DNA of 64,000 bases from Candidatus Thorarchaeota archaeon (lineage in GTDB: Archaea > Asgardarchaeota > Thorarchaeia > Thorarchaeales > Thorarchaeaceae): the NCBI GenBank assembly GCA_963726195.1, contig CAVSBO010000018.1:1-64000 (forward strand), given 5' to 3'. The notes under the pieces are model-generated. The model made no database searches and was not told where the DNA came from. It saw only the letters and a program-made list of their open reading frames with translations. Below are positions 18,902 to 52,880 of this stretch, in pieces. Every line of letters starts with the position of its first letter. The stretch's first letter is position 1. The translations under genes were made by a program, and so were the position numbers.

Positions 18902-19040
18902 TGGTGGGGACGCAGGGAGTTTCACGAGGTCGTGCAATGCGACCAACGATTTGAACCCTGGATTGACGAGTTTTTTTTCGGATGACCCCATGTTCATCAG
19001 ATTTGGAGCCCGTTGCCTTACCGGCCTAGGCCACGTCCCC
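18902..19040 (-). tRNA. tRNA-Trp(CCA) with two introns (37/38: 18972-19002; 59/60: 18919-18949), CCA encoded
   Basis: GGGGACG/CGTCCCC acceptor, GCCT/AGGC D-stem, ACGGG/CTCGT anticodon stem, CAGGG/CCCTG T-stem; T-loop intron forms a perfect BHB (TTCA/TGAA, bulges AAT and ACT). Confidence 0.92.
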
Positions 19041-19173
19041 AAGTTTGTTCCATCGTAGGACTCGGGGATTCGTTGTTGATTTAATTCTTGTGCTAGACTC
19101 CTTGTTTTCCTTCGCATCTCTTGGAATAATGATAGCATGATAGTAATAAGTGCTGCAAACGTAGGATACAGGC

Positions 19174-19866
19174 ATGAGAAATGCGGGACCAGGTCTTCAG
19201 GGCATCACAGGCATTGACGAGGCCGGCCGGGGACCAATAATAGGTCCGCTTGTCGTCTGCGGTGTACTGATACAGCCTGGGGCCGCGCCGGAACTGCAGC
19301 GTATTGGCGTTCGAGACTCGAAGACCCTTACTCCTAAGCGTCGTACCGAGCTTGCAGAGCAGATTCGATGTATTGTGGATAAAATCAGGTTGGAGCGAAT
19401 CTCTGCTGCTGAGATAGATGATTTCAGAGCAAAGGGCATTACGATGAATGAGATTGAGATCCGAGCATTCGCCTCAATCCTTCGTTCTCTTCGACCAAGC
19501 GAAGCATTCATTGATGCAGCCGATATCAACGCTGAGAGGTTTGGTATTATGGTTGGCGAGAAGAGCGGTCTGGTCTCCTCTGGCTGTAGGATTGTATCGG
19601 AGCACTTCGCAGATTCCACCTACCCAGTTGTTTCCGCAGCATCGATAATCGCCAAGGTTGATCGTGACAGTTGCGTCAGGGAGTTGCAGAAGGAATTCGG
19701 GGCGTTTGGTTCTGGTTATCCGTCGGACCCACAAACGGTTCAGTTTGTTCGCTCATTGATTGCCAGCAAAAGGCCACTACCAGCAATAGTACGAAAGAGC
19801 TGGAAGTCGGTTGAAAGAATCCGGCTGGAGAGCGAAGGCGAGCAGTTGCGGCTGGGGTCAGGCTAG
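19174..19866 (+). CDS. rnhB: Ribonuclease HII
   Basis: GIDEAGRGP, VRDSK.L, VSAASIIAKV, GSGYPSDP. Confidence 0.96.
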   Translation: MRNAGPGLQGITGIDEAGRGPIIGPLVVCGVLIQPGAAPELQRIGVRDSKTLTPKRRTELAEQIRCIVDKIRLERISAAEIDDFRAKGITMNEIEIRAFASILRSLRPSEAFIDAADINAERFGIMVGEKSGLVSSGCRIVSEHFADSTYPVVSAASIIAKVDRDSCVRELQKEFGAFGSGYPSDPQTVQFVRSLIASKRPLPAIVRKSWKSVERIRLESEGEQLRLGSG

Positions 19867-19867
19867 C

Positions 19868-20830
19868 CTATGTTCCCGACCTTTCCTCGATAATCCTTCT
19901 CAGTTCGCTTGGCCTGTCGATTTCGTCGAGTTCCAGCTGTCTGATGACCGGGAGTTCTGAAACCTGCTCATCCGCTTTTCCTTCCTCGACTACTATCATT
20001 GCACTTGATTCCGCGACCTTGGAAACGCTCTTCAGTATCTCAACACGTTTGTGCAGGGTCAAGCTCTTGAGCGAGCCAATTCCTGTCAGAAACGGCGGTC
20101 CTTCTTCCTTTGCGGCAACGTGGAAGGGCGCCCTGTCGGTCCAGAGCACTTTCATACCCAACCTCTCGAAGAACTCGTTCACACGTTTCTCAATATCCGG
20201 AATATCCTTCGGGAGTCTCGGCCGATCCAAGTGTTTACGCCCGATTGGCTTTCTGAGTATGTCTATCGGAATGACGAGATCGGTTTCAAGCACTTTCTCA
20301 AGTCTATCAGCGACATCCGAGCTGACATCCATCTCATCCTTTTCATAGGCAAGGATGGCTCTTGTAGAGACCTCTACACACCCTGCAAGCTGCTCCTTCG
20401 TCATCTTGCGAGAGGTGCGCGCTTCCCTTAGCCTGACTCCATCGATGGCCACAAACCTTCCCCCTCTTTGAACGAACTCTCGAGGAGCTTGTCCATCAGC
20501 CGTCACGCTGTGGAAGCTTGGAGGAGTTACAGTGTACACGCCATATCTCTTGTAGACAGTCCCTTCTTCCAGAACACCCCTGCGAGCTCTTTCGCCGACC
20601 ACTAGCGCGGTAGCATTGAAGAACAGCGCGACCTGCTGCAGAGCAACAGCATCCTCCTTAGTCAACGCATCGATGTTTGAAAGGACCTTTACGAGAATGA
20701 GTCGCCCTCCTCTGCGCGCCACCAAATCGAAGCAGCTAGGTCTTACGTCACACTGCGATGAGAGCTCAAACCCAGCCTCTTCTAGGTTCGTCATAACCTC
20801 ATGCATCAGCTGGTTTCGGGTGACAGTCAT
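19868..20830 (-). CDS. Archaeal HTH transcriptional regulator (COG1395-like)
   Basis: SCFDLVAR...VKVLSNID; Cro/C1 HTH LREAR...LAG..EVS...I.AYE. Confidence 0.85.
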   Translation of the reverse strand: MTVTRNQLMHEVMTNLEEAGFELSSQCDVRPSCFDLVARRGGRLILVKVLSNIDALTKEDAVALQQVALFFNATALVVGERARRGVLEEGTVYKRYGVYTVTPPSFHSVTADGQAPREFVQRGGRFVAIDGVRLREARTSRKMTKEQLAGCVEVSTRAILAYEKDEMDVSSDVADRLEKVLETDLVIPIDILRKPIGRKHLDRPRLPKDIPDIEKRVNEFFERLGMKVLWTDRAPFHVAAKEEGPPFLTGIGSLKSLTLHKRVEILKSVSKVAESSAMIVVEEGKADEQVSELPVIRQLELDEIDRPSELRRIIEERSGT

Positions 20831-20923
20831 CGTCAGTGCCTTAATTGAACTCGTTACGAACATATTTCAGGATTGCTAAACATGAAAGTTCTTGCAGCGA
20901 TTGACAGTGAATCCATCGTCGAA

Positions 20924-21370
20924 TCACTCGTTCTCTGCGGCCAATGTAAACCCGATGCATGTCGTTGATGGCATCTTCTTTCTAAGCAACTGTACTTCCG
21001 GCCGGGCCAAGGTATCGATAGGCTTCCACGTCCTGATACCACTCCATGGTAGGTCTACCTGTCCTACGACCATTCTTCGTACTAGGAACAACTCGGCTTT
21101 TCCGCCTGCTATCGTGAACATACCTGGTCCCAAGTCGAGCCTTCGAAGGATCACTATTGGGAGCCTCAGTTCGCTTTGATATTCGAATGGGACCTCCTTT
21201 GAAAGCATTTCAATCTCCTCCTTTCGGAGGGAAGAGCTTTCTCCATTTCGTGTAACATAACACGGTGTTTCGCTTGCAATGAGTTCAGACAGTATCACAG
21301 TTGCGCTAGGCAGATGGTTGTTCACCTCATCTATTTCCCGCTTGATTGTTCTCTCAAGCAGACCGGTCAC
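20924..21370 (-). CDS. DUF61 family protein
   Basis: EIDEVNNHLP...LSEL, LRLPIVI; downstream of fibrillarin. Confidence 0.75.
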   Translation of the reverse strand: MTGLLERTIKREIDEVNNHLPSATVILSELIASETPCYVTRNGESSSLRKEEIEMLSKEVPFEYQSELRLPIVILRRLDLGPGMFTIAGGKAELFLVRRMVVGQVDLPWSGIRTWKPIDTLARPEVQLLRKKMPSTTCIGFTLAAENE

Positions 21371-22062
21371 TTCATGTCCTCCCTAACGCGGCAAACTGCG
21401 AAAACATGGTCTCTATCAAAGGGCTCAAGATCGATTCTCTCGATGACCTCAAGTCCGAGTTGGTCGAGTTTGGAGATTTCTCTGCTGTAGATTTGACGCA
21501 CGTCTAGAGTCGAATCTATGCTACGTGCCTTAATCGCAATCATGGCCCAGGCTCCGTACGAACAGAAAGCGGCGACGTTGTCATGGAGAATTCTCGCCTG
21601 ATCTGGTTGTGCAACGTCTTGGTATACGATGTCGACCTGACCTGAGACAATCGAAGCATATCGGGCAGGATGCCTAGCATCATTAACGATTGGCATAATG
21701 TTACTACGTGAGGCGGCGAGCCGTATCAAGGCCCTTGCGATTGTAGGAGAGAACTCGACTGCGTAGACAACTCCTTTCCGTCCTACTATGTCTGAGACAT
21801 GGCTCACTGTCGTCCCTGATGACGCTCCTAGATACAGAACCGTTGATCCGGGCTGGATTGGCATTTCATTGAGACCATTCTGAATAGCAGCACAGAGTTT
21901 CGATCTCTTCGCAGACCATACCCTGAACTCCCCCTGCTCATCTCTAATGATTCTCTCCCCGTACACACTTTGATTTGGGACAAGACTGCGCGTGGCAAGG
22001 GCTGTCCTCCCATTCTCTATGACATTAAAGACCCCGGAGAATCTGTGCGGTTCTACACTCAC
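21367..22062 (-). CDS. flpA: Fibrillarin (box C/D 2'-O-methyltransferase)
   Basis: VYGER, RSKL.AAI, VLYLGASSGTTVSHVSD, YQDVAQPDQ, IKARSID. Confidence 0.97.
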   Translation of the reverse strand: MSVEPHRFSGVFNVIENGRTALATRSLVPNQSVYGERIIRDEQGEFRVWSAKRSKLCAAIQNGLNEMPIQPGSTVLYLGASSGTTVSHVSDIVGRKGVVYAVEFSPTIARALIRLAASRSNIMPIVNDARHPARYASIVSGQVDIVYQDVAQPDQARILHDNVAAFCSYGAWAMIAIKARSIDSTLDVRQIYSREISKLDQLGLEVIERIDLEPFDRDHVFAVCRVREDMK

Positions 22063-23319
22063 TACCTGCGTCCTCCACGCCTTCTCTCCGTCTTGCGCTG
22101 GCTCGGTCCGGAAGGTCGTGCCCTAGGCGGCCTGCTGCTTTTCTTTTCGGGAGGTGCCTTCTCGGGTGCGACAGGGTTCTGTTTCCGTATTTCTTCAACT
22201 CTCTTTTCGAATGCGTTTCTCAAATCCTCTCCCGCATCCCTACCTGAGTAAGCGTCAATCTTGGCCGCAATAGCCAGCTTTCCAGCTAATGCCCTCGCGA
22301 TCTTTCCTCTCTGCCAATATGGCGCAGAGTAGATCTCGGGAACTTGATATATGACTCCGTGCTTTGGTGGGTCGGTTCCAGTTTTTAGACTTCGGAACAG
22401 GGCTCTTTCTGCACCGTAGACTTGGACTGTACTCGAAGGTCTGGAAGCCAAGTCTTTGAGAGAGCCCGCCAAGTCTGATTAAGCGAGCTCCCACTATTGG
22501 ACCTACGAGGGTCGTTATGTTCGGAGCCACAGTGTGCATCACGGATGCGACATAATCCTCAAGTTCCTTCCTAAGCTTGTAGAGACCCTCAACGGTCTCA
22601 GCAAGGCGGCCAACTATCATCAAGTCCGCTTCTTGGAAGTCTGCCCCGACATCTTCGTCGAGACCATCAATAACCGACTGAATCAAGGAATCCGGCAAGC
22701 CCGCTGACCTGAGTCGGTCTTCATCAACCTGGCTTTTTCCTTTGCAGGCAATCACCACACGAACGAACTGCTCTTGGTCTTCCACTAATTTGCTAAGCGA
22801 GCTGTGGTGTAGCGAATACCATTCTCTCAATCGCATTACAGCCACATTGATTGATTTGTCGATTTCTCCAATGGCATCGATTGCATGCTTGACCAGAAGG
22901 TCTCTTGCTTCGCTCGCTGTACTTACGTTGGACTTGGCGAGAATCAGCGCTACTGCACGTTTGAATGATGTTGCTCTCTCTTCCGATTCGACAAGTCTCG
23001 TGTCTAGAAGATGCTTCTCCAAACCCGTTCTAAACCACTTAACAACAGGCGACGACTGCTCAACTTGGACCGGTATCTTGGTCAGTGTTGAGATTGCTCG
23101 TGCTGTTGCTGAGCTTTCAACAACCACAGTATCGGTGTCAGATTCTTGGATTTCCTTCATTGCTTGCCTGAGACTGGGGGTTGCCTTGCCCTCGTTTGCA
23201 GTGGATATTTCGGAAGCAGAGACATCGACGTCTGGATAGGTAAGGTACTCTGCAATCACCGTTCCATTTGTGTCAAGCACAAAGGCGCCAAAGGCTGTGA
23301 GGGCGAGATAGACCGGCAT
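22062..23319 (-). CDS. nop5: Nop5/Nop56-58; apparent frameshift near 22474
   Basis: [23 protein letters not shown] then (next frame) [43 protein letters not shown]. Confidence 0.93.
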
Positions 23320-23448
23320 ATCACATCATCTGCTTGGCTTGGCGCATCGCATCATCATAAGGTTGACTGTCCAAATCCAATCCTTGCCATGTCATGTGCC
23401 ATTTAGTCTATTACTGCTCCCCAGCTAGTCCCACTTGACGGGATTCGA

Positions 23449-24319
23449 TTGAAGCTTGAAGGGTATTGGCTGGCGTCAGGAATCCTTGGAGTCACGGGTT
23501 CCATCATGCGTCGAGTGATTAATGCTGGGGCGGATGCAGTCGTAACCAAGTCGATTGGCCCGCATCCAAGGAAAGGGAATCCCGGACCAGTCCTAACCGC
23601 GTCACATGGAGGTCTGTTGAACGCCGTTGGTCTGACTAATCCGGGGATTGACCATTTTAGCGAAGAGATGGAATCAATGAAGAGGTCGGGTGTCCCTGTT
23701 GTCCTCAGCATTTTCGGAACCACCATTGAAGAGCTCGTGGATGTGGCCCGGAAGGGCCTGAGCATGGGCCCTGATGCTATCGAGCTGAATCTATCCTGCC
23801 CACATGCAGAAATCGGTCAGATATCACTCGACCCTCGTCTGACATACGATTTTGTCCACGCAGCACGGGAGGTGGTGGATTGCCCGTTGCTGGCCAAGAT
23901 CACACCAAACGCATCAGATGTAGTTTCCATAGGACAAGCTGCAGAACGCGCCGGGGCTGACGCCGTTGTTGCCATCAACACGGTCAAAGCAATGAGAATC
24001 GACATCTATCAAAGACGGCCAGTTCTTTCCAACAAGGTAGGCGGCCTGTCGGGTCCCCCGATATTCCCGATAGCTGTCCGATGTGTCTACGACCTGTACA
24101 GCAAGTCTGTCAATCCCTATCATAGGTGCGGGGGGCGTGGCCACGTGGGAAGATGCAATTGAGATGCACTTGGCCGGGGCAAGAGCGATTGAGATAGGAA
24201 CTGCTGTTCTTCAGGGCATTGACACCTTCAGGCAAATCAAAGAAGGGGTTCAAGCCTATCTCAGAGAGCAGGGGTTCACTGACGTATCTGAAATCATAGG
24301 TATTGCAGGGAGGACCTGA
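23449..24319 (+). CDS. pyrD: Dihydroorotate dehydrogenase catalytic subunit; apparent frameshift near 24106
   Basis: LASG, VTKS, NAVGLTNPG, ELNLSCPH, INT, GGLSG; IPIIGAGGV in the second frame. Confidence 0.93.
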
Positions 24320-24321
24320 GG

Positions 24322-25146
24322 ATGAATATAGAGCAGCTCATGGGAAGTCCGCAATCTGTGCGCGTGAGCAGAATTGTCCGTGACAATGAACGAGTCAGAA
24401 CGCTAATCTTCCCTCTGCGACAGCAAGACGAGAATATTCAACCTGGTCAGTTCCTTATGGTTTGGGTCCCCGGAGTGGATGAAATCCCCATGAGCGTATC
24501 TATATGGAATCCTCCGAACATTGGAATAACAGTCCTTCCAGTGGGAGAAGCAACTCAAGCGCTTGTCTCAGTGACAGAGGGTCAATGGTTGGGAATCAGA
24601 GGACCGTTTGGAAGCCACTTTGATTTCCAGCCCGGGAGAGCGCTTGTAGTTGGAGGAGGAATAGGAATGGCACCGCTCAGGTTCCTTGTTTATCGACTTC
24701 GCGAGGTCGGTGCAGATGTGACTTTGCTAGTGGCTGCGCGAACTGCGAAGGATTTGGTCTTTGTCAATGAATTCAACAAACTAGCAGGTAAGAAGTTTCG
24801 TGTGAAAACAGCGACAGATGACGGGTCTTCTGGCTTCAAGGGCTTGGCAACAGATGCAACAGAGGATTTCCTTAGGGGCGCCAGCTTCGATCTCATGTAC
24901 ACGTGTGGCCCGGAGAAAATGATGGCTGGACTTTACAGAATAGCTAATCAACGCGGGATACGATTCCAAGCCTCTCTTGAGCGATTCATGAAGTGCGGGT
25001 GTGGGATTTGTGGGTCATGTGCATTGGACCCAACTGGTGAGCTTGTGTGTCTGGATGGCCCGGTGTTTACTGGAGAGAGATTGTCGCAGCTCAGCGAGTT
25101 TGGCAAGTATTGCAGGGATTCCACTGGAGCAAAGACGGACCTGTAA
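24322..25146 (+). CDS. pyrK: Dihydroorotate dehydrogenase electron transfer subunit
   Basis: PGQFLMVW, RGPFG, GGGIG.AP, CGPE.MM, MKCGCGICGSC...VCLDGPVF. Confidence 0.95.
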   Translation: MNIEQLMGSPQSVRVSRIVRDNERVRTLIFPLRQQDENIQPGQFLMVWVPGVDEIPMSVSIWNPPNIGITVLPVGEATQALVSVTEGQWLGIRGPFGSHFDFQPGRALVVGGGIGMAPLRFLVYRLREVGADVTLLVAARTAKDLVFVNEFNKLAGKKFRVKTATDDGSSGFKGLATDATEDFLRGASFDLMYTCGPEKMMAGLYRIANQRGIRFQASLERFMKCGCGICGSCALDPTGELVCLDGPVFTGERLSQLSEFGKYCRDSTGAKTDL

Positions 25147-25175
25147 TCAGAAAGCCAGTCAGCTACACAAAGCCT

Positions 25176-25355
25176 CTATCTACGTTCCATACTCTGCGCT
25201 CTGACACCCACAGGTCGGCCGCGAATGAATCGCTTGACGTAGTTATTCTTGTTTCTCATTCGCGGGATTGGGGTATGCCGCTCTCGAGCCTGGACCTTTG
25301 GAGTCGCCTCTCGGACTTTTCCTGCCTTTGTTAGTGAACCGTGTGAACCAGGCAT
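25176..25355 (-). CDS. rps30e: 30S ribosomal protein S30e (59 aa, below the ORF-track cutoff)
   Basis: Manual translation MPGSHGSLTKAGKVREATPKVQARERHTPIPRMRNKNNYVKRF... Confidence 0.93.
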   Translation of the reverse strand: MPGSHGSLTKAGKVREATPKVQARERHTPIPRMRNKNNYVKRFIRGRPVGVRAQSMERR

Positions 25356-25505
25356 TCGCAGCTTCCTCTCTTCGAGTTTGAATCATAATCGTCGGGCTGC
25401 TCATAAAAAGCTATCCAATCGGCACCACTCGTTTCATTGCGCTCGAGGTGATGGAAGGAGCGCATCGCTTAGTATTAATGCCCACTGGAGGTCAGCTATG
25501 GGACA

Positions 25506-27111
25506 ATGTCTGACACAGACGAAGACCTCGGTCTCCGAAGAGAGATCATAGAAGCATTGCTTAGCTCAGAAGACTTTCTCGACAAACAGGCTATCAATCG
25601 CATCAAGAACCACGTTTGTGCAAAGTACCGGCGACCTGATATTCCGTCTAATGCTGACATACTTGAGGCCGCTCTGCCCGAAGAACTTGAACTGCTCACG
25701 CGACTGCTGCAAAAGCGTCCTGTGCGGACAGTCTCAGGTGTCGCTGTCGTTGCCGTGATGACCAGTCCTCGCCCCTGTCCTCACGGAAAATGCGCATATT
25801 GTCCCGGAGGACCAGAGAGTGGCGTCCCCCAAAGCTATACCGGCTTTGAACCAGCCACAATGAGGGGCCTACAGAATGATTTTGACCCGTACAGGCAAGT
25901 GGAGAGTAGACTGAGACAACTGAGAGCGACCGGGCATTCTGTCAACAAGACAGAGCTAATTGTCATGGGTGGAGACTGGTGCTCGAAGGATCAGAGCTAT
26001 CGAGAGTGTTTCGTCAAGGGGTGTCTTGATGCAATGAATGGCGGGATTAGTGAAAACATCGAAGCCGCCAAGACTCTCAATGAGGTCTCTCAAGTCAGAA
26101 ATGTGGGCATGACATTTGAGACACGGCCAGACATGATTACTACTGAATCTGTAGATGACATGTTGAGGATGGGTGCAACCCGGGTTGAAATCGGGGTTCA
26201 GAGTCTTTCTGATTCAATCCTCAAGCTTGTCGAAAGAGGCCATGATGTTGCTGCTACGGCTCGCGCGACAAAACTGCTCAGAGACTCTGGGCTGAAGGTG
26301 TGCTATCATATCATGCCCGGCCTGCCCGACACCACACCTGAAGATGACTTGGCCGGATTTGAACAGCTGTTCTCTGACTCTCGATTTCGTCCCGACATGC
26401 TGAAAATCTATCCGACATTGGTCATCAAAGGAACGAAGCTCCATGACTGGTGGGTGAAAGGTCAGCTACATTCCCTACGAAACAGAATCGACAGTGGACT
26501 TGCTGGCCCAAGCCATCAGCAAGATGCCTGAGTACGTTCGGATTCAGCGCATGCAGAGGGACATACCCCTTCACAAGATTGAAGCAGGACTGACGAAGGG
26601 AAACCTACGGGAACTTGTACATCAGAAGATGGAGGTTCTGGGTCTCAGGGACCGAACAATAAGATTCAGGGAAATCGGTCACTATGAGATGAGAACTGGG
26701 CAGAAAGTCAGCGCTGATCAATTGCAGACAGTCCGCCGGGACTATGAAGCATCAGATGGAACTGAAACTTTCCTGTCATTCGAAGAACCTGCTGCCGACG
26801 TGATTTGCGGCTTCCTCAGGCTTCGCAAGCCTAGCCGAGAGGCGCAACGACCTGAGTTAGCCCGGGGTCGAACTGCGATCATCCGTGAGCTACGTGTCTA
26901 TGGTCCCGTTGTTGATGTTGGAAAGAGGAAACCCGGGGCTTGGCAGCATTTAGGCTTGGGAGAGAAGCTCGTCTCTGCAGCTGAGAGAGTGGCCAGAAAG
27001 GATTACCATGCAGACCGACTGCTGGTCAATAGTGGGCTTGGCGTCAAGCAATACTATAGAAACCTTGGTTTCACGGATACTGGTCCATACTTGGTCAAGG
27101 TTCTGCGTTGA
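25506..27111 (+). CDS. elp3: Elp3 tRNA wobble-uridine acetyltransferase (radical SAM + KAT); apparent frameshift near 26463
   Basis: RTVSGVAVVAVM, CPHGKCAYCPGG, PQSYTG.EP, ETRPD, LKIYP; RIQR.QRDIP, RELRVYG, QHLGLG in the second frame. Confidence 0.95.
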
Positions 27112-27161
27112 GATCGTCTTCAGTAATTCATCTGCGTACATGGATTCACAAGAAAGGAGTA

Positions 27162-27304
27162 TGGCGCCGAGGAGGAGATTGATTCGGTCATGACGAAATG
27201 TCAGGACCTTTGAACTCCTGAGAGCAGAGCTCACCGGTTCTCAGGACCGGCGCCTGGAGACTAGCGTGTTTCAAGCGCATTTATCCGGGCTTGGCTACCT
27301 CGGC
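27162..27304 (-). tRNA. tRNA-Ser(TGA) with two non-canonical introns (21/22: 27256-27280; 58/59: 27180-27209), CCA encoded
   Basis: GCCGAGG/CCTCGGC acceptor, G73, CCGGT/ACCGG anticodon stem, GAGC/GCTC variable arm, AGGAG/CTCCT T-stem; both introns fold into BHB motifs. Confidence 0.9.
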
Positions 27305-27395
27305 CCACCTGCAGGTTTTCTCCTGTAAGACGACCCCCCGTTGGAAACTGCTTTTAAGCTTCTTGGACTGCCCGATAGGGAAGGAGCGATTCTGG

Positions 27396-27827
27396 TTGAA
27401 GCATGGCTTCAGATACCATGGGCACACGTCCGATATCACTATTGAATGCTGGGCCCCCACTCTTGAGAAGGCATTCGAAGAGGCCGCCTTGGCAACCTTT
27501 GAGGTGATGGTCGACACGGCTCTTGTGAGACCTACTGAGTCGGTGGAAGTGAGCGTCGGAGGAATCGATATGAAAGAGCTACTTCTTTCATGGATTGGAC
27601 GGCTTATAGCTCTTGTGGACATCAATCAGCAGTTCTACTCGAAGTTTGAAGTCAAAGAAATCTCGGGAGTGCCTGAAGGATTCTCGCTGAATGGCAACGT
27701 GTGGGGCGAAACGATAGATTTCGAAAGACACAAGCCGCGAACCGGAGTGAAAGCTATGACGTATGCTGACATGAAGATCGAGCAGTCAATCACAAAGTCA
27801 ACACTATGGTTCACGCTAGATTTGTAG
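27396..27827 (+). CDS. Archease (RtcB tRNA-ligase cofactor)
   Basis: FRYHGHTSDI.IE..A.TLE.AFEEAA, VKAMTY, TLDL; TTG start after AAGGAG. Confidence 0.92.
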   Translation: MKHGFRYHGHTSDITIECWAPTLEKAFEEAALATFEVMVDTALVRPTESVEVSVGGIDMKELLLSWIGRLIALVDINQQFYSKFEVKEISGVPEGFSLNGNVWGETIDFERHKPRTGVKAMTYADMKIEQSITKSTLWFTLDL

Positions 27828-27844
27828 GATAGGAGGTTCCAAGG

Positions 27845-28768
27845 ATGGGGCTTGTTGTCGCGATTCCGGACACATCACTTGCAGGTTGCTCCGACTTGCG
27901 TGAGAAGACGTTGAAGGCGGGCATTCTCGCGCGTGCTTTCGCAGTTTTCAGAGTTGACAAGGTGGTCATCTTCAGTTCTCCACTGGTTCATGACAATCAG
28001 AAAACAGATGCTGACCTGCTCTTTAGATTGCTCAAGTACATGGACACACCCCAGTATTTACGCAAGAAGCTCTTCCCGCAAACTCCTTGGCTGAGGTATG
28101 CTGGGCTTCTGCCTCCTCTCAGAACACGCAGCCACCCGCTCAATGCGAAGGTTTCTGGCCTCGTTAAGGGAGAGTTCAGATGGGGTGTTCCTGTTGCCAC
28201 AGGCAAGGTGGACATGGGTCTTGAGAGACCTTTGGATTATCCTGCTCCTTTGAACGAAAGAGAACCGACTCTCTTTAGAATCGCAGAGCTGCACCCGCGC
28301 ATACTGCTTGAGGTTATTCAGCGAGGCGATGCAGACGTGTACTGGGGTTTTGATGTACAATCCATTGAGAATCTCGTTCAATATCTAAGAGGCTCCGAAC
28401 ATACAACACGCATTGCTTTTTCGCGGATGGGTGAGCCGTTTGAGACTCTTCAAGCTGAAATCCAGTCCAGTGTCACAAGGACCGGAAGTGTGATTGCGCT
28501 ATTTGGAGGCCCATATCAAGGACTGCATGAAATCTTTGCTGATAGGCTCAAGTCGCTTGAGTCCTATACTGAGTTCTGGGTCAACACGATACCTGACCAA
28601 GGAACAGAGACGGTGCGTTTGGAAGAAGCACTATTCGCTAGCTTGGCTTTGGTGAATACTTCTGTGGGTTCACTGATATCGAAACCGGGTTTTCATAGAG
28701 AAACGCGGCGAGGAGACCCCCGACTTCAGTCGGGGGAGGAGACGCCGCCGCGGGATATACGAGTTTAA
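27845..28768 (+). CDS. SPOUT-family RNA methyltransferase (DUF171/SPOUT1-like); last 24 codons supplied by an inserted mini-IS
   Basis: LARAFAVFRVD, TPQYLRK.LF, YAGLLPPLRT..H, NTIPDQGTETVRLEEA; conserved position upstream of rpl3. Confidence 0.9.
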   Translation: MGLVVAIPDTSLAGCSDLREKTLKAGILARAFAVFRVDKVVIFSSPLVHDNQKTDADLLFRLLKYMDTPQYLRKKLFPQTPWLRYAGLLPPLRTRSHPLNAKVSGLVKGEFRWGVPVATGKVDMGLERPLDYPAPLNEREPTLFRIAELHPRILLEVIQRGDADVYWGFDVQSIENLVQYLRGSEHTTRIAFSRMGEPFETLQAEIQSSVTRTGSVIALFGGPYQGLHEIFADRLKSLESYTEFWVNTIPDQGTETVRLEEALFASLALVNTSVGSLISKPGFHRETRRGDPRLQSGEETPPRDIRV

Positions 28769-28925
28769 ATGTGAGCTTGAAAAGTGAAGGATCGTGTCCG
28801 ACCATGGCAATGCTGTGGTCGGGAGGGCGAAAGTCAACCGCCCGAATGTCGCGCGAAATGACGAAGTGGAGTTCCTACCTCGGATCGCAGTGGCAAGCCC
28901 ACGACCTTAGTCGCGGGTAGTTGAC
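28697..28925 (+). mobile_element. 229-bp non-autonomous IS200/IS605 miniature element (PATE-like)
   Basis: LE hairpin CCCCCGAC-TTCA-GTCGGGGG (28717-28736), RE hairpin CCCACGAC-CTTA-GTCGCGGG (28898-28917) followed by TAGTTGAC; guides GAGA and CAAG predict cleavage sites TCAT and TGAC, both present; removal gives CAT GTC TGA. Confidence 0.88.
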
Positions 28926-28945
28926 GTCTGAATCATTGATACGAG
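28795..28945 (+). ncRNA. Putative stand-alone TnpB omega-RNA (scaffold plus flank-derived guide)
   Basis: TATA-like TTTAAAT at 28764; hairpin 28798-28822; GGGCG/CGCCC stem whose loop GTCAAC (28833-28838) can pair with terminal GTTGAC (28920-28925); RE hairpin. Confidence 0.6.
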
Positions 28946-29073
28946 AGTAATGCGCCACGCAACTATGAGCCGTCACAAGGGAAGATTAAAAAGCGAAACT
29001 CAGGAAGGCGCCCGCCTGTAGTACGAATAGCCCAGTCAAAAGGCCGTTCGATAAGGGACAAGTGGTGTTCTAG

Positions 29074-30081: not shown

Positions 30082-30097
30082 AAGGAGGGCGTAGACT

Positions 30098-30886: not shown

Positions 30887-30898
30887 GGTGGCTGAACG

Positions 30899-31162: not shown

Positions 31163-31174
31163 GGAGGTGTCTGA

Positions 31175-37734: not shown

Positions 37735-37809
37735 GCCCGAGTAGCTCAGTGGAAGATCGCCTGCTTGGTAAGCAGGAAGTCGCGGGTCCGATCCCCGCCT
37801 CGGGCTCCA
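37735..37809 (+). tRNA. tRNA-Thr(GGT), intron-less, CCA encoded
   Basis: GCCCGAG/CTCGGGC, CCTGC/GCAGG with loop TT-GGT-AA, GCGGG/CCCGC; atypical T-loop TCCGATC and one D-stem mismatch. Confidence 0.9.
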
Positions 37810-40697: not shown

Positions 40698-40742
40698 TAT
40701 CCCGTCATTCTTATAACTTGAACAAGCCAACAGCGACGCCGC

Positions 40743-40852
40743 GGGTCGGTAGTCTAGCTTGGCTATAGTGGCTTTGCCTCACACAGGCCAGCGGCTAAGA
40801 TTCTTGGTTTGGGTCCAAGAGATCGCCGGTTCAAATCCGGCCCGGCCCACCA
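40743..40852 (+). tRNA. tRNA-Pro(TGG) with a 32-nt D-arm intron (~40767-40798, position ~22/23), CCA encoded
   Basis: GGGTCGG/CCGGCCC, CTTGG/CCAAG with loop TT-TGG-GT, GCCGG/CCGGC with TTCAAAT; relaxed BHB GGCT/GGCT with bulges ATA and AAG. Confidence 0.92.
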
Positions 40853-42057: not shown

Positions 42058-42333
42058 CGCTATTCATTCCCTGTCTTGCGGGATTCGTCTGCGGAGCAGA
42101 ATGGTGCAGTTGAAACGGTATCCACTTGGGAACCCAGAGAGAGCGTCTTGATGGTTGCCCCTCACGAGCTCGCACCCGAAAGACGGACCTGTTTAGTTCA
42201 TGGCTAGCTCAACCCTCGAACAGTGTCCATCATGCGAGGTTTCTCCCCAAAAGCCGGCATATCACCCGGATGCTTTCGGACGATATGCTTATGTGAGCAA
42301 ATTCCATCAATACACCTTGAGGGTGTACGCTCG

Positions 42334-43236: not shown

Positions 43237-43666
43237 ATCGTTACTGAATGCCAATTCCCCTTTGTGACCCTGCTAGATTCGTCGGCTAGACCTTAGTCAC
43301 ATGTGCCTCTTCTTATCTCACACCCAAGATCTCGCTAGTTCCAGAATGTGAGCAGTCCAGCTGCACACGCGCGAAACAGCGAACATCTAATTCTGCTGCT
43401 GATAACTGCTACCTTGCCGACAGTATGGCGGGACATCACACAATGAAAAGCAAGTTGCTATAGACACATGCTAGGTAATGCATAATGAGTTGTGTGAGTG
43501 GCACGAAAGACCAGAAGGTAACAAGTCGGCTCTGATATGGCCGGCTCTAGCCAGACGGCAGGAACAACGGAGGGAGTCGGTGGTGTATTCCGCTATGTCA
43601 ATGTGGCTTTCCAGACACAGACTGAGGCTCCCTCCGTCAGTTTCTGACAGCAAATCACGAGGTGCT

Positions 43667-46081: not shown

Positions 46082-46308
46082 TATCACTGACCCCTCTCGA
46101 GCATGAACGACTCCGCGCCGCCTTAGAATACAAGGCAGGCGTTATTTATGAGTTCCGACAAATTGATGGTCATCCTCCTTGAGGGCGAAAACAGCACCTT
46201 GACCTTTCATGAACATCCACCATTCATTTCTTCATTGTCTTGTTCTTGCCCGAAGTTCGGCAATAGTCGAAATACTTATCTCGCAAGCGTCGTAGTCAGT
46301 TGGGCGAA

Positions 46309-47034
46309 ATGTCGGCTCAAGCGTCTGTCCGGGAGCAGCTCGCACGTCGGATGGCTGGCGAGATTGCCCTATCTGATCACCCCGGACAGGCAATGAGAGT
46401 CTGGCGAGAGCGTTTCAGGCTCCCTCAGATTGTGCTGGCTGAGTTCATCGGAATAAGCCCCAGCGTGATCAGTGACTATGAGTCTGGTCGACGCAAGTCT
46501 CCCGGCACCTCCACCATAAGACGGTTCGTGATGGCTCTCCTTACTCTCGACGAACGGAATGGTGGTCAGGTCGTTTCAGGTTTCGCACGCTTGATGGATG
46601 TCAGCCTTGTCGATCTCAATATCGTTCTTGCAATGAGCGAGTTCTCTTCTCCCATGACCTGCAGTGAATTCTGCAAGAAACTGAAGTGTGATGTTCTAGC
46701 AGGAAAAGACCTGATGGGCAGGCAAATCTACGGTTACACACTCGTTGACATAGAGCGGGCAGTAAGAGAGTTAAGCACTGAAGCATTCCTCAAGTTGTTC
46801 GGGGCTACAACCGAACGTTGTCTCATATTCACGAAAGTATCGACTGGCCGTGCGCCCATGATAGCGATAAAGTCTCAAGAATTCAAGCCAACACTCGTGA
46901 TATTTCACGGGGTTCCCGATGCTGACCGCTTGGCGGTTGAACTCTCAGAACAGATGAAAATACCTCTAGCTGTAACAAGAATCAGTTTGCTGGACAATCT
47001 CATCAAAGAGCTACATGACATCAAACCCAGTTAG
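46309..47034 (+). CDS. Archaeal HTH regulator (COG1709-like)
   Basis: AGEIALSD.PG..MR.WRE.F, SPSVISDYESGRRKSPG, VSTGRAPMIAIK. Confidence 0.9.
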   Translation: MSAQASVREQLARRMAGEIALSDHPGQAMRVWRERFRLPQIVLAEFIGISPSVISDYESGRRKSPGTSTIRRFVMALLTLDERNGGQVVSGFARLMDVSLVDLNIVLAMSEFSSPMTCSEFCKKLKCDVLAGKDLMGRQIYGYTLVDIERAVRELSTEAFLKLFGATTERCLIFTKVSTGRAPMIAIKSQEFKPTLVIFHGVPDADRLAVELSEQMKIPLAVTRISLLDNLIKELHDIKPS

Positions 47035-47945
47035 CCGAGTATCAGTCTCAGAAGCGCCATTCTTGTGATAACGCCATTGTAGACTTGGTCAAAGTATTTG
47101 GCCTGAGGCGTCTTGTCCACTTCCTGTTCTATCTCATCAACTCTCGGCAATGGGTGCAGAATGATTGCGTCCTGACGCATTAGGCTCACATCTTGAAGTC
47201 TAAGTTTGAACTTGCCCTTCACAGCATCGTAATCACGAGAGTCTGGAAACCTCTCCTTCTGGATGCGTGTCATGTACACGACATCGACATCCTTCACGCC
47301 CTCTTCAAGTGTGTCAACTTCAGTAACATGAAGTCCAGCTTTCTTCATCTCGTCGATTATCGCAGGTTTCATCCTCAACTCTGGGGGTGCTGCTAGCTTA
47401 ACGGTCACATCATAATGCGAGAGGGCCATACCCAGTGAGTGGACTGTGCGGCCATATTTGAGATCGCCACATAGAGAGATAGAGATTCCATCGATTTTTC
47501 CCTTGAGCTTCCTGATTGAATACAGGTCGAGCAAGGCCTGTGTCGGGTGCTCTTCTGAGCCACTGCCAGCATTGATAACGGGGATGCGTGAGAATTCTGC
47601 TGCTACTCTTGCAGACCCGTCGAGGTTGTGTCGTATGACTATGACGTCAGCGTAACGTTCCACCGTGCGAATCGTGTCGGTAAGGGTCTCTCCCTTTCCA
47701 CCCGCACTGGAGGTCGCTACGTCAGCAAACCCGAGAACACTGCCCCCAAGTCTAATCATTGCGCTCTCAAAGGAGAGTCTTGTACGGGTTGAGGGCTCAA
47801 AGAACAAGCAGGCCATTATCTTTCCTTCGAGTTCCTTGCTCCGCTTGACTGCGACTGACTCCATCTTGGCGGACGTATCGAGTATTAGGTCAATATCCTC
47901 TCTTGTCAGGTCCTGAATGCTGATTAAATTGCGGAGACGGCCCAT
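47031..47945 (-). CDS. pyrB: Aspartate carbamoyltransferase catalytic subunit
   Basis: FFEPSTRTRLSF, HPTQALLD, GDLKYGRTVHS, RIQKERF, HPLPR. Confidence 0.97.
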   Translation of the reverse strand: MGRLRNLISIQDLTREDIDLILDTSAKMESVAVKRSKELEGKIMACLFFEPSTRTRLSFESAMIRLGGSVLGFADVATSSAGGKGETLTDTIRTVERYADVIVIRHNLDGSARVAAEFSRIPVINAGSGSEEHPTQALLDLYSIRKLKGKIDGISISLCGDLKYGRTVHSLGMALSHYDVTVKLAAPPELRMKPAIIDEMKKAGLHVTEVDTLEEGVKDVDVVYMTRIQKERFPDSRDYDAVKGKFKLRLQDVSLMRQDAIILHPLPRVDEIEQEVDKTPQAKYFDQVYNGVITRMALLRLILG

Positions 47946-48028
47946 CTCATGTCACTTCTCAAGTATCTGGGCCAAAACATGAGTGGCCCACATTTTAAGG
48001 TTTCCAGCGATACTCGACCAAGTCCGAC

Positions 48029-48508
48029 CTATGCCTTTGCAGCATTCCGACCATAGTTTCTTTTGATGTGTAGTTGTCGCACTACGATGCCGGCTTCCTC
48101 CGCGAGCTGGGCTGCCAGTTCGTCTTCATACTCTTCGATATACACTATCTCGACAATGCCGGCATTGATGAGCATCTTTATGCATATGCTACAGGGTCTG
48201 GTCGTACAGTACATGCTGGCACCTCTGACGCTGATTCCATGGTATGCTGCTTGGATTATCGCGTTTTGTTCTGCATGTAGTCCCCGACACAGTTCATGAC
48301 GTTCTCCAGGTTTGACCTTCAGTTTTTCTCTGATACACCCTATGTCTTCGCAGTGCGTCAGACCTTTTGGTGCTCCATTGTAACCTGTTGACAGAATCTG
48401 TGATTCCTTTACGACTACCGCGCCAACCTGATTTCTCAGGCACGTGCTTCGTGATGATACAAGATCAGCAATTTCTGCAAAGTATTCATCTTTGCTCTTT
48501 CTGGGCAA
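48029..48508 (-). CDS. dCMP deaminase / ComEB family
   Basis: RSTC.R.QVGA, TGYNG, HAEQNAI, PCSICIK. Confidence 0.92.
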
Positions 48509-48611
48509 TGTTGGTCGGTCTCCAAGTCATGAGCTGCCCAATCGGCCATCTCGAAACTTATGAAGCTCGTGATTATGAGTCGTCGGGACATGGGCTCCTG
48601 CGTCTCAAACA

Positions 48612-49043
48612 ATGGCAAAGGTAAAAAAGACCACCCGCCTCTTGTCGGGGGACCTTGTCCGCCTACGACCAAATGGGAGTGACACAGCTGTGAGAAAACG
48701 CAAGGGTGCAATAAGGGTCTGGCCAGCATACCTCGACTCGAATCTGTCTAGAGGACAGGGTCGTAGGATTTCCATCAACCTAGCTGCACCGGATGTCACA
48801 ATTGATGTATTGGCGGAAGCTGCAGCAGCTGCAGGCCTTGAGTCTGAACTTGAAAACGACAAGCAGTACCCTCGGAACTGGTCGGGAATTGGTGGTTGTG
48901 TTGTCTTAAGTAACCCTGAAGGACACAAGAAGAAGCGGGTTCTTCTGATGCTCGCAAAGGGCGTCCGCAGAATCGTGGCCCAGCGGGAATCTGAAAGACA
49001 GGCTGCCGAAGCAAAGAAGGCAGGAAAGAAGCGGCGGAAGTAG
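48612..49043 (+). CDS. srp19: Signal recognition particle protein SRP19
   Basis: VWPAYLDS.LSR.QGRRI, DKQYPR.W...GCV. Confidence 0.92.
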   Translation: MAKVKKTTRLLSGDLVRLRPNGSDTAVRKRKGAIRVWPAYLDSNLSRGQGRRISINLAAPDVTIDVLAEAAAAAGLESELENDKQYPRNWSGIGGCVVLSNPEGHKKKRVLLMLAKGVRRIVAQRESERQAAEAKKAGKKRRK

Positions 49044-49070
49044 GCGCTAGTTACTGGAGCTGGTAATCAA

Positions 49071-49301
49071 TTGAGACGGCTTGGCAAGGTTCTGCATATT
49101 TCAAGACGTGGTGCCATTATTCTCCGGACAGAAAAGACTCCTCCAATAGGGGCTGAAGTGGTCAACAAGAGCGTTGAAGTAATCGGCACCATAGCAGACA
49201 TCTTTGGCCCAGTGAAGGAGCCTTACGTTGCGATTCGCGCTAAACAGGGTGTGGACACCACCAAGCTTGTCGGGCAACCTGTATACCTCTATAAGACGTA
49301 A
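49071..49301 (+). CDS. gar1: H/ACA RNP protein Gar1
   Basis: RLGKVLHI, IGTIADIFGPVKEPYVAI. Confidence 0.92.
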   Translation: MRRLGKVLHISRRGAIILRTEKTPPIGAEVVNKSVEVIGTIADIFGPVKEPYVAIRAKQGVDTTKLVGQPVYLYKT

Positions 49302-49433
49302 TGTACACATTAGTACATCGATGTCATTTGCCTTACATCATTCATGGGCAAATGAGTGCAACATCCGAACACTTAATTTGGCATGGTGCAGTTACTTTGA
49401 TGTTATCTTGTGCCAACCCCAAAGGTCGTTTCA

Positions 49434-49781
49434 ATGAGCAATGTATTTGACCTCGTCCGCAGTGCTCTCCAAGCAGCAGCTGGTTCGGGTGTCTTCCCTG
49501 AAGAATTGGCGCATAGGTTAGGCATCGAGTATCAAGTAGTAATAGAAGCCATTCAACACATGATATCTGAAGGAATAGCGATGGAAGAACAGCATGCAGA
49601 AAAGCCGCGATACTTCATCAAGGCAACAGAAGAAGAGGTCAGCCAACATCAATTGTCAGACCTAAATGGGTGCCCCTGTTTTCACTGCCTTAAGATAGAC
49701 AGATGCGGCGTCAGACAGCCAGATTCTCCAGTCATATGTAGGAGTTTAGAGGAGTGGGTCACGAGCTCCGAGTCCTCTTAG
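49434..49781 (+). CDS. TFE-beta / Rpc34-like protein (winged helix plus 4Fe-4S cluster)
   Basis: N-terminal wHTH (GV..EELA..LGI), C-terminal PCFHC.....C......SP..C..L..W. Confidence 0.75.
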   Translation: MSNVFDLVRSALQAAAGSGVFPEELAHRLGIEYQVVIEAIQHMISEGIAMEEQHAEKPRYFIKATEEEVSQHQLSDLNGCPCFHCLKIDRCGVRQPDSPVICRSLEEWVTSSESS

Positions 49782-49786
49782 GACAT

Positions 49787-50398
49787 CTATTTGTTACTTC
49801 CCGTTCGCACAGGGGCTTCAGCTAGAACATAAATCTCAGCGCTTGCTCTTCTCGACGCTTCAGGCTTTACGAGCCTGACGAAGCGGAATCTCGCGCGCAG
49901 AGACTCCATGATCTCTTGGAAACCTCTTCCTTGGAAGACCTTGGCTAAGACCTTGCCCTTTGTGGTCAGGAGATCCGAAGCGATTTCGAATGTCTTTTCG
50001 ACAAGGAATAGTTGTCGAGCCACATCCATGTCCCAAGCTCCACTGACTTTGGGCGAACAATCTGATAGCACTAGGTCCACTCTTCCTCCTGTCAGACTCC
50101 TGATTGTCTCGAACGTTTTTGGCTCTGTAATATCTCCATGCAGAAACGTAACCCCGTCTATGGGAATCATTGATTCGATGTCGACTGCTACGATTGCTAG
50201 ACTACTATCGATTTCACGCAAAACCTGTGTCCACCCACCGGGGCAGCAGCATAGTTCCAGAACGACATTGACTCCTCTCAAGAGCTTGTACTTCGCTATG
50301 ACCTGTTTGAGCTTGTACGCTGACCTGCTACGATATCCGTGCTTCTTAGCGGCCCTGTAGTACTGCTCTCTCTTCCGTTCTTCCTGAGTTCTAACCAT
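49787..50398 (-). CDS. rlmE: 23S rRNA 2'-O-methyltransferase RlmE/FtsJ
   Basis: GYRSRSAYKL, PGGWTQV, VLSD..P.VSG, KP.ASR..S.EIY. Confidence 0.93.
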   Translation of the reverse strand: MVRTQEERKREQYYRAAKKHGYRSRSAYKLKQVIAKYKLLRGVNVVLELCCCPGGWTQVLREIDSSLAIVAVDIESMIPIDGVTFLHGDITEPKTFETIRSLTGGRVDLVLSDCSPKVSGAWDMDVARQLFLVEKTFEIASDLLTTKGKVLAKVFQGRGFQEIMESLRARFRFVRLVKPEASRRASAEIYVLAEAPVRTGSNK

Positions 50399-50413
50399 TC
50401 GCCTTGCACACAC

Positions 50414-51607
50414 CTAGTGTCGTCGAATCATTTCCACCAGTTCTCTAATGGGGGCCGTTGTTCGTATTGCTGTGGGCCTGAAGTGCGTTCTACTCACTTC
50501 GTAACCCGAATCTTTCAGGGTACTCATGACATCGGCAATGGATGGCGACTCAAGACCGTGCAGATCACAAAGTGCGTGAAGGTCCGTATAGATGTAATCA
50601 GTCAGGCTGCATTCCTCTATCATGGTTTCGAGCAGCTTGGGAACGCGCGAATGATACATGCTCGGGCTCTGCCCTAGAGCACGCTTTGCAGTTTCGAGTA
50701 TTGATAAATCATAGAGCTCGCCTATCCAGAGCGGACCGGCGAAGGAAATCCGGCCAGTGCAATCCGCTTTCTGGTGCTCGACCCCCTCTTTGATTGGGAG
50801 AAGTCCCAAGGGCAGGAATCGAGTGGCCATGCAACCCTGACAGTAGATGACATAGCCAATCTTCTTGGTCTGAGAATTGGAGTCCGTGCAGCTGGTCTTG
50901 GTCTCAAGCCAGACTCGTATGTAATGATCTGTACTCAACGAGGCCAATGGTTTGATTCCTGAGTCGTTCATGGCCGCAATGTTGAACGCACGCCCGATGA
51001 GCAGCCTAATGGCCATTTCATGGGAGAAGGGTGCTCTAATTGATAGCCCTCCATATTTCCTCAAGGCGATTCTTGGTTGAGCCCCACACAGGACCGGCAT
51101 GTCAGTTGCGGTCAGACCCAGAAGGGCTCCCCGAGGGTCAAGTGATTGTATGGCCGCAGTCATGTAGGGCGCGGGAGTGCCAAAGGGATCCACGTCAATG
51201 AAATCGAATCTCTTCCCGCGAGATTCTGTCAACAGCAAGACCTTTGCATCTCCCTTCTTTACTGCGACTCTCTCTTGAAATCCGAGCCGCCCAACATTCT
51301 TCTCTATCATTTCAACAGCGTATGGGTTTGCATCTGAAATGACGGCATGGAAGTCTCCTGAGCACTCATTGAGGTACCTCAAGGTTCTGACACCACACCC
51401 TGCGAGGGGTTCACAGATTTCCTGTAGAGGATTCCTCTCCATGTATGCCGACAGAAAGAGAACCGAGAGATCTCTGTTGATGCGCATACGCGGATTGTAG
51501 AAGACGGGCAAGTCTGTTTTCAACTGGCGCTGATTACCTGCATAGTGCTCCAAGTCAGCACTCAGGAATGTTGTTCTTCCTTCCGTGTATTCTCTCTCAA
51601 TAATCAT
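50414..51607 (-). CDS. trm1: tRNA (guanine-26-N2)-dimethyltransferase
   Basis: VFYNPRM..NRDLS, GVRTLRY, IDVDPFGTP, TATD, GPLWIG.L, RTHF. Confidence 0.95.
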   Translation of the reverse strand: MIIEREYTEGRTTFLSADLEHYAGNQRQLKTDLPVFYNPRMRINRDLSVLFLSAYMERNPLQEICEPLAGCGVRTLRYLNECSGDFHAVISDANPYAVEMIEKNVGRLGFQERVAVKKGDAKVLLLTESRGKRFDFIDVDPFGTPAPYMTAAIQSLDPRGALLGLTATDMPVLCGAQPRIALRKYGGLSIRAPFSHEMAIRLLIGRAFNIAAMNDSGIKPLASLSTDHYIRVWLETKTSCTDSNSQTKKIGYVIYCQGCMATRFLPLGLLPIKEGVEHQKADCTGRISFAGPLWIGELYDLSILETAKRALGQSPSMYHSRVPKLLETMIEECSLTDYIYTDLHALCDLHGLESPSIADVMSTLKDSGYEVSRTHFRPTAIRTTAPIRELVEMIRRH

Positions 51608-51626
51608 GGGCAGGCAACCACAGCCT

Positions 51627-51729
51627 TTGGTCTGCTAATAAGCCGATAGGGTTGCCCGATACAGGGATACTCCGCCGTGGATGCGACCCCATGCCTATCC
51701 GGTTTGTTCGTCCCCTGTGTTCAGACCAA
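51627..51729 (+). ncRNA. Candidate pseudoknotted structured RNA
   Basis: TTGGTCTG/CAGACCAA, AATAAGCCG/CGGTTTGTT, ATAGG/CCTAT, GGTTGC/GCGACC and crossing GATACAGGG/CCCTGTGTT; G-U pairs favour the + strand. Confidence 0.35.
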
Positions 51730-51806
51730 TCGTTCTTGGCAGTATCCAGAACAGATATGTGTGCTTCAGAGGTTAAGGATTAGCCATTGCACGTGGAGAG
51801 AACCTC

Positions 51807-52698
51807 ATGAGATTCGGACTACAGCCACTTGATTTTCAGCCCATTGTTGGACAGATACTCGTGAACGGTGTACCGGACTTTTCGAGATTCACAATCGACA
51901 ATCTCGTCCGTCTGGCGCTTAAGATGGGTCACATGAGGGCGGTCGAGGTGACAATGGATATTGAACGTTTGGTACCGGGCTCACTCACTCCGGAGTCTGT
52001 CGCGAAGTTAGCAAATCTCAAGGAGGAACTTGGGAATGCGTTCACGGTTCATCTTCCTTTCTACTCGCTCGAACTGGCGAGTTTCAATGAGCACATACGG
52101 CAGGCTAGCGTCGAGACCGTAGTGAGAGCAATAGAGCTGGCTGCGCCCCTTGAGCCGGAGGCATACGTGCTGCATACTACCGGTTCATTGGCTGCAGAGT
52201 TCTCGCGGCTCACTCTCGCAGAAGACATGGTGACTCTGATCTGTCAGCTACATGAGCATATTCGCCGCACGCAGTTTGGAGGAGATTCTTACAAGAAGCG
52301 AAATCGACCCGAGGAAGATTGCAGTCGAGAATGTGGAATTTCCGTTCGAGATTACGCATGAGCTTGTTGAACAGTACAACACGAGCATATGCTTTGACAC
52401 GGGTCATCTGCTGACCCACTACTCAGGAACCGAGTCTGTCATAGAGTTCTACAGACAGCATCGAGACAGAATAGTGGAAATTCATCTTCACGATGGCAGT
52501 TATGAGAAACGGGATGATGTCGTGGTTCACAGAGACCATATTCCACTTGGGCGCGGCGTGATGCCAGTTAGGGATTTTCTAAGAGAGCTGCTCAAGAGTA
52601 AGTTCAACGGTCCGATTATCTTCGAGCTGAGCAATGACGAAATCAAGGAATCGTTGGACTACATGCGTAAAGTTGTCCCTGAGGTATTGGCTCGATAG
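51807..52698 (+). CDS. Xylose isomerase-like / AP-endonuclease-2 TIM-barrel protein (CbiR-like); apparent frameshift near 52245
   Basis: TVHLP, YVLH, AVEN, CFDTGH, IHLHD, DH..LG.G, IFEL metal-binding motifs split over two frames. Confidence 0.82.
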
Positions 52699-52713
52699 AA
52701 GCCCTGTGGTCAT

Positions 52714-52723
52714 AACGTTTAAA
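52714..52723 (+). promoter_or_regulatory. BRE/TATA promoter of tRNA-Ile
   Basis: AACGTTTAAA ~50 nt upstream of the tRNA. Confidence 0.55.
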
Positions 52724-52771
52724 TCACAGTCAAAGGTGTAGCCGTTTGAGAGCCTCAGTTCTCAAAAAGCT

Positions 52772-52880
52772 GGGCCCGTAGCATAGGCATTCAACATGAA
52801 TTCCATGTACCAACTAGAGTGGTTAATGCGACGCTCTGATAAGGCGTAGATCGCGCGTTCAAATCGCGTCGGGCCCACCA
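52772..52880 (+). tRNA. tRNA-Ile(GAT) with a ~31-nt D-loop intron (~52787-52817), CCA encoded
   Basis: GGGCCCG/CGGGCCC, GCAT/ATGC, ACGCT/GGCGT with loop CT-GAT-AA, GCGCG/CGCGT with TTCAAAT; exact intron junctions unresolved. Confidence 0.9.

Follow-up and report, generated by a model that had tools for sequence, protein, structure and literature searches.

The stretch analyzed here, hereafter the window, comprises 64,000 nt from a metagenome-assembled genome (MAG) of a Candidatus Thorarchaeota archaeon (2.92 Mb in 19 contigs, 88.9% complete, 3.9% estimated contamination) and carries five tRNA genes. One of them, tRNA-Thr(GGU), is uninterrupted. We report that the other four, for tRNA-Trp(CCA), tRNA-Ser(UGA), tRNA-Pro(UGG) and tRNA-Ile(GAU), contain six introns of 25, 30, 31, 31, 31 and 32 nt, five of them at non-canonical positions (Table 1), in exact agreement with the number and lengths given in an original prediction made from the DNA letters. 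The interrupted genes were found by scanning for 7-bp acceptor pairs followed by N-CCA, with the genes then interpreted manually; the scan yielded these four candidates besides tRNA-Thr. Each of the five genes is preceded by A/T-rich promoter-like boxes.

Standard tRNA scans had been expected to miss or miscall such genes, and they do. ARAGORN with default settings returned tRNA-Thr(GGU) alone from the window; with -i it called tRNA-Pro as Val(cac) and tRNA-Ile as Gly(tcc) and missed tRNA-Trp and tRNA-Ser. The Rfam tRNA model passed its threshold for tRNA-Thr only, gave sub-threshold matches at 40785-40849 and 52813-52869 (E ≤ 10), and found no match at the Trp and Ser loci even at E ≤ 10. Default annotation would report the genome as lacking tRNA-Trp, tRNA-Ser(UGA), tRNA-Pro(UGG) and tRNA-Ile(GAU). 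After in silico excision of the six stretches, ARAGORN, which had called none of the four genes before, recognized them all and assigned the expected anticodons, and the joined exons fold as perfect cloverleaves. All exons are collinear within 109-143 nt, which is not the organization of split or permuted tRNA genes. We also used a structure-based search of our own, which looks for the acceptor pair, T-arm, anticodon arm and D-arm, allows one intron per arm, and penalizes each intron before crediting it for bulge-helix-bulge (BHB) pairs. The four interrupted genes score 41-44 in this search, accepted tRNA genes score 38-48 genome-wide and are followed by a gap, and reversed-genome decoys reach at most 20.4.

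Intron borders were set by reading out the orthologous tRNA genes in a sample of 60 genomes of the same class. The BHB geometry was taken as a 4-bp central helix (H) and two 3-nt bulges, each cut after its second base, together with outer (h) and inner (h') helices. Because motifs of this strict geometry are frequent by chance (a search for them alone was too noisy, with dozens of chance motifs per gene), orthologues were used first, and a motif carries weight through its coincidence with borders that the orthologues set independently. For five of the six introns, all but Trp 37/38, intron-less orthologues have exactly the predicted spliced sequence. Excision from tRNA-Pro leaves a D-arm identical to that of intron-less tRNA-Pro(UGG) in relatives (four uninterrupted genes, and two more with an intact D-arm), and the borders of the Ser 58/59 intron are fixed by genome G006, whose tRNA-Ser has no intron. 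The comparison upholds the positions first proposed for tRNA-Trp (37/38 and 59/60), tRNA-Ser (~21/22 and 58/59) and tRNA-Pro (22/23). It moves the tRNA-Ile intron from ~15/16 to 17/17a, after the fourth D-loop nucleotide, since the D-loop left by excision there equals that of the intron-less tRNA-Ile in G029, a genome of the same genus.

Table 1. tRNA genes, introns and the neighboring archease gene in the window
Feature	Position	Strand	Found or supported by
tRNA-Trp(CCA), two introns, encoded CCA	18902-19040	-	Acceptor/CCA scan; ARAGORN Trp(cca) after excision
Trp intron 1, 31 nt, canonical 37/38, relaxed BHB, carries GGGGUCA block	18972-19002	-	
Trp intron 2, 31 nt, T-loop 59/60, strict hBHBh'	18919-18949	-	
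tRNA-Ser(UGA), class II, two introns, encoded CCA, C33 in anticodon loop	27162-27304	-	
Ser intron 1, 25 nt, after last D-loop nucleotide (~21/22), BHB H 4/4	27256-27280	-	
Ser intron 2, 30 nt, T-loop 58/59, strict hBHBh'	27180-27209	-	
Archease gene	~27396-27827 (start approximate)	+	Pfam PF01951, E 1.4e-34
tRNA-Thr(GGU), uninterrupted	37735-37809	+	ARAGORN default; Rfam
tRNA-Pro(UGG), one intron	40743-40852	+	Acceptor/CCA scan; ARAGORN after excision
Pro intron, 32 nt, 22/23 in D-stem 3' strand, BHB H 4/4 (two G-U pairs)	40767-40798	+	
tRNA-Ile(GAU), one intron	52772-52880	+	Acceptor/CCA scan; ARAGORN after excision
Ile intron, 31 nt, D-loop 17/17a, relaxed BHB (H 3/4)	52789-52819	+	

Four introns have a fully paired central helix: Trp 59/60 (H 4/4, outer helix 5 bp), the Ser D-loop intron (H 4/4, h 2, h' 2), Ser 58/59 (H 4/4, h 3, h' 4) and Pro 22/23. 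The remaining two are relaxed forms. Ile 17/17a has H 3/4, an outer helix of 1 bp and an inner hairpin, in whose stem an A-U pair is replaced by G-C, a compensatory change, in the closest relative, G017. Trp 37/38 keeps the exact spacing, with CUCC facing an A-run (AAAA; H 1/4), an outer helix of 5 bp formed by the anticodon stem and an inner hairpin of 8 bp. In the Ser 58/59 motif the central helix is 4/4 in all 15 genomes that carry the intron while its intron strand varies between GAAU, GAAC, GGAC and GAGC, and the inner helix covaries through compensatory changes across the same 15 genomes. The six introns have no sequence similarity to each other, as had been noticed from the window itself.

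The introns recur in other assemblies. Relative to G017, which was assembled independently, the exons are 96% identical (307/321) and the introns 73% (131/180), and G017 carries the same introns at the same sites in diverged sequence, the Ser D-loop intron being excepted by its absence from all sampled orthologues. Insertions created by assembly or binning could be suspected in a MAG with some estimated contamination, but homologous introns with compensatory changes occur in other genomes and the flanking synteny is Thorarchaeotal; because independent assemblies agree, we regard an artefact as excluded for practical purposes. The host itself is placed by its sequence among Thorarchaeota (Asgard) and not Thermoproteales: the closest relatives of its tRNA-splicing endonuclease are all Thorarchaeota MAGs, with a top match 89% identical from isolate OWC5.

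A genome-wide census extends the picture and bears out the proposal of an intron-rich lineage. We count at least 46 tRNA genes, 30 of which are interrupted (23 with one intron, six with two and one with three), and 38 introns, 15 at 37/38 and 23 at non-canonical sites (12 in the D-arm, nine in the T-arm and two in the 3' anticodon stem), a load of ~0.83 introns per tRNA gene. Lengths are mostly 28-33 nt genome-wide, and we saw only two sequence families of introns common to different genes. Most tRNA genes encode CCA; the first pass, which demanded it, missed Val(CAC) (C8:22978-23052), Gln(UUG) (C16:41111-41215) and Ser(CGA) (C10:68282-68381), and a pass without this requirement added these three only. 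The search filters passed over Cys, Gly(UCC), Ser(GGA), one Met gene and a second His gene because of unusual T-loops or an acceptor mismatch, and these were added manually from ARAGORN and Infernal hits. Leu(CAG) is the sole expected anticodon not found in the census, and the gene at C16:29649, whose intron register is ambiguous, is probably Arg(UCU). The second tRNA-His(GUG) (C11:5280-5400), which would make 47 genes, is diverged, lies 1.3 kb from the first and has a similar D-loop intron; in it G19 is changed to A and C56 to U, so that both partners of the G19:C56 tertiary pair are altered together.

The genome encodes a matching set of splicing enzymes. EndA occurs as two paralogues, and both Pfam domains are present in each of them. 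EndA alpha (188 aa; contig C11) can be aligned from residue 11 to residue 188 with 3P1Z_B, the catalytic subunit of the A. pernix (alpha-beta)2 endonuclease (PDB 3P1Z, 3AJV; E 2.6e-45), and has the catalytic Tyr, His and Lys in a conserved block; its GIKKPKS aligns to VEKPRG of 3P1Z_B, which puts K43 at the position of K44, the lysine of the Crenarchaea-specific loop (L1/CSL) to which relaxed specificity is due. EndA beta (210 aa; contig C16) is without the catalytic His and is closest to M. kandleri and M. jannaschii proteins, not to the crenarchaeal beta subunit. The broad-specificity endonuclease that such introns were said to need is thus predicted here as a two-subunit alpha-beta type whose loop bears the lysine of broad specificity. 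Immediately upstream of the EndA beta gene there is a C-terminal fragment of a TnpB-like zinc-ribbon protein (L002, 216-728). The ligase RtcB is encoded on contig C7, and archease, a cofactor of RtcB, in the window. In the mechanism that we propose, each gene would be transcribed with its introns included, and the exon-intron borders of the precursor would fold into two 3-nt bulges around a 4-bp helix, or a relaxed version of it. A heterotetrameric (alpha-beta)2 EndA with the loop lysine in its catalytic subunit would then cut after the second base of each bulge, and RtcB with archease would join the exons and probably circularize the introns.

We consider it very probable that the four loci are functional single-copy Thorarchaeota tRNA genes interrupted by protein-spliced BHB introns, with cleavage and ligation predicted from the motifs and the enzyme set. 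That the genes are functional is argued by their conserved exons, their single-copy status and the conservation of the interrupted genes across genera. Several observations weigh against this interpretation. The Trp 37/38 and Ile introns are without a good central helix, so that their cleavage rests on an assumed relaxed specificity of the enzyme. At another locus the genome has an uninterrupted tRNA-like gene whose anticodon is GAU (C3:484255-484338; Infernal 47 bits), and the MAG is 89% complete, so that a second copy of these tRNA genes may have gone unseen. The last two points would also suit a reading in which the cell is served by working copies free of introns and the interrupted genes are relics in decay, a reading that we hold to be very improbable. 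Exons that are 96% identical to those of the closest relative and fold perfectly are not what decay would leave, the same interrupted genes are conserved across genera, and in the census Trp, Ser(UGA) and Pro(UGG) are each represented by a single gene, with no intron-less copy for any of the three. DNA searches for further copies returned one match each for Trp and Ser and partial matches only for Pro and Ile. The gene on C3 is itself atypical, with C33, an extra arm of 13 nt and an irregular acceptor stem, and it does not encode CCA. It appears to be strain-specific, with none in the 60 sampled relatives, and lies directly downstream of AAA_15 and OLD-like TOPRIM open reading frames (ORFs) typical of a defense-type nuclease.

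Comparison of intron positions among relatives, which the original prediction had proposed together with the ARAGORN -i run, shows that the six introns differ widely in their distribution. All 19 sampled tRNA-Trp orthologues have an intron at 37/38, whereas that at 59/60 occurs in five of them and the other 14 have an intact TTCAAAT T-loop. In tRNA-Ser, the 58/59 intron is found in 14 of 15 sampled orthologues, G006 being the exception, and the D-loop intron in none of the 15, the same genus included. The Pro 22/23 intron is shared, among relatives, with G017 only. The Ile 17/17a intron is present in two of 19 orthologues (G017 and G019, not G029), and 15 of the 19, including that of G029, have an intact D-loop. 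Relatives also hold other introns at other sites within the same genes. These distributions indicate that the introns are evolutionarily short-lived insertions, one class-wide, one nearly so, three confined to the genus or a few genera and one found only in this genome. Very recent gain is evident in the Ser D-loop intron, seen in this genome only, and in the Ile and Pro introns, seen in close relatives only. A third tRNA-Trp intron of 31 nt, at ~31/32-32/33, is present in the same-genus genomes G029 and G019, giving three introns in one 77-nt tRNA. In genus g9 the Trp introns are 58-63 nt long and carry a stretch (CCGTCGTC...) that resembles, in sense orientation, the 3' anticodon stem and variable loop, which suggests a partial duplication of the anticodon arm.

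The same patchiness, which extends to presence and absence within a single genus, makes it unlikely that the introns persist by virtue of a function, for example by disrupting the target sites of integrating elements in tRNA genes, instead of being neutral insertions tolerated by a broad-specificity enzyme. The diverged second tRNA-His close to the first would fit such a function, but intron sequences evolve fast, we saw no link between introns and integration sites in the window, and a published census found no general route or role (10.64898/2026.10.13.758758).

The Trp 37/38 intron deserves separate consideration. Introns of tRNA-Trp in Euryarchaeota include box C/D methylation guides, and the present one could be a miniature guide of this kind and not a mere spliced spacer: it contains UGAUGA and CCGA, which resemble boxes C and D, and nucleotides 30-35 of the same tRNA are a possible pairing partner for its GGGGUC. 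We think this improbable, as the box-like words are not kept among relatives, which have UUAUGA, CGGUGA or CUAUGA for the first and AAGA or AGGA for the second, and only GGGGUCA is retained. Moreover, a full C/D RNA would not fit into 31 nt, Rfam returned nothing at the Trp intron even at E ≤ 10, and a conserved set of C, D', C' and D boxes around guides to C34 and U39 was not found. Two other arrangements were considered for the Trp 37/38 intron and rejected. A 19-nt intron with a strict BHB (CUCC/GGGG), ending after GGGGUC, would leave 12-13 nt that in relatives cannot form an anticodon stem, and a pseudoknot of GGGG with CUCC beside the inner hairpin has no linker and was judged sterically unlikely.

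The retained GGGGUCA belongs to a block of 12-13 nt, ACAUGGGGUCAU(C), common to the 37/38 introns of tRNA-Trp, tRNA-Leu(UAA) and one tRNA-Met(CAU) in this genome; as ACATGGGGTCAT(C) it stands at 18981-18993 (-) of the window, at C16:252127 and at C16:246928. The genome contains five occurrences of the word ATGGGGTCAT, as many as chance predicts, and three of them fall in these three introns. GGGGUC is complementary to nucleotides 30-34/35 of its own tRNA in all three cases. Built around GGGGTCA, the core of the block as kept in the Trp intron, the pattern GGGCTCCARA-N(8-38)-GGGGTCA matches 53 of 76 sampled genomes of the family and three of 224 other Asgard genomes, and the reversed control pattern matches almost nowhere. 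In the Leu and Met introns the block lies outside the BHB. It is conceivable, although we lean against it, that the block is a functional intron-borne element and not just a sign of shared ancestry, one that might expose the 5' splice site to cleavage in place of a decayed central helix, or mark these precursors for modification at position 32 or 34 before splicing.

Heavily interrupted tRNA genes in Asgard archaea are already published, and the present case is one further example. An (alpha-beta)2 EndA with the L1 loop was described in Asgard archaea by Kaneta et al. (2018), with one Thorarchaeota genome (SMTZ1-83) appearing only in a summary figure (PMC5829648). Valentin-Alvarado et al. (2024) found 92-95% of tRNA genes interrupted in Atabeyarchaeia and Freyarchaeia (PMC11291895). 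An October 2026 preprint covering 90 Asgard genomes reports that annotators miss D-arm introns, infers many recent gains and puts the median outside its focal families at 0.86 insertions per gene; the string 'Thorarchae' is absent from its main text (10.64898/2026.10.13.758758). Published Asgard introns resemble ours in being short BHB introns, many of them in the D-arm and T-arm, several to a gene, missed by standard annotators above all in the D-arm, repeatedly and recently gained, and accompanied by an (alpha-beta)2 EndA with L1/CSL, and the load of 0.83 is close to the published median. The focal lineages, Atabeyarchaeia and Freyarchaeia/Jordiarchaeia, differ in having 92-98% of their genes interrupted and more than two introns per gene. 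Thermoproteales introns (Sugahara 2008; Fujishima 2010), as far as they are recounted in PMC11291895, are alike in intron kind, splice logic, endonuclease and loop, and in their 58/59, 59/60 and D-arm sites; they belong to another phylum, and the introns of the present genome differ from them in being highly uniform in size with only two shared families. What we add is a well-documented Thorarchaeota case with borders fixed by relatives, a genome-wide count and a matching enzyme set, and it leaves knowledge of how such introns work or arise unchanged.

The archease gene is indeed divergent from the two-intron tRNA-Ser, as originally described, across a spacer of ~90 bp that holds a single TTTTAA-type box; its relatives align from about residue 36 of the ORF. 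The gene order Elp3, tRNA-Ser(UGA), archease and SPOUT methyltransferase (PF02598), spanning 25506-28768, forms a conserved tRNA-processing neighborhood. The archease/tRNA-Ser arrangement is kept in 14 relatives of several genera, and the adjacency is not specific to the two-intron state because it is also kept in G006 with its intron-less tRNA-Ser. The comparison points to a real but old synteny that is not tied to intron content. Elp3 (radical SAM and GNAT; wobble-uridine modification) is represented by two overlapping ORFs, 25506-26531 and 26494-27111, as a result of a 1-nt insertion relative to the intact gene of G017 (26455-26531), either a sequencing error or a real frameshift.

The anticodon loop of tRNA-Ser(UGA) (CCUGAGA) has C33 in place of the near-universal U33 (27244, -), as do Gln(UUG) at C16:41111-41215 and the probable Arg(UCU) at C16:29649-29758. 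The C33 of tRNA-Ser(UGA) is also found in G019, and G017 and other relatives have U33.

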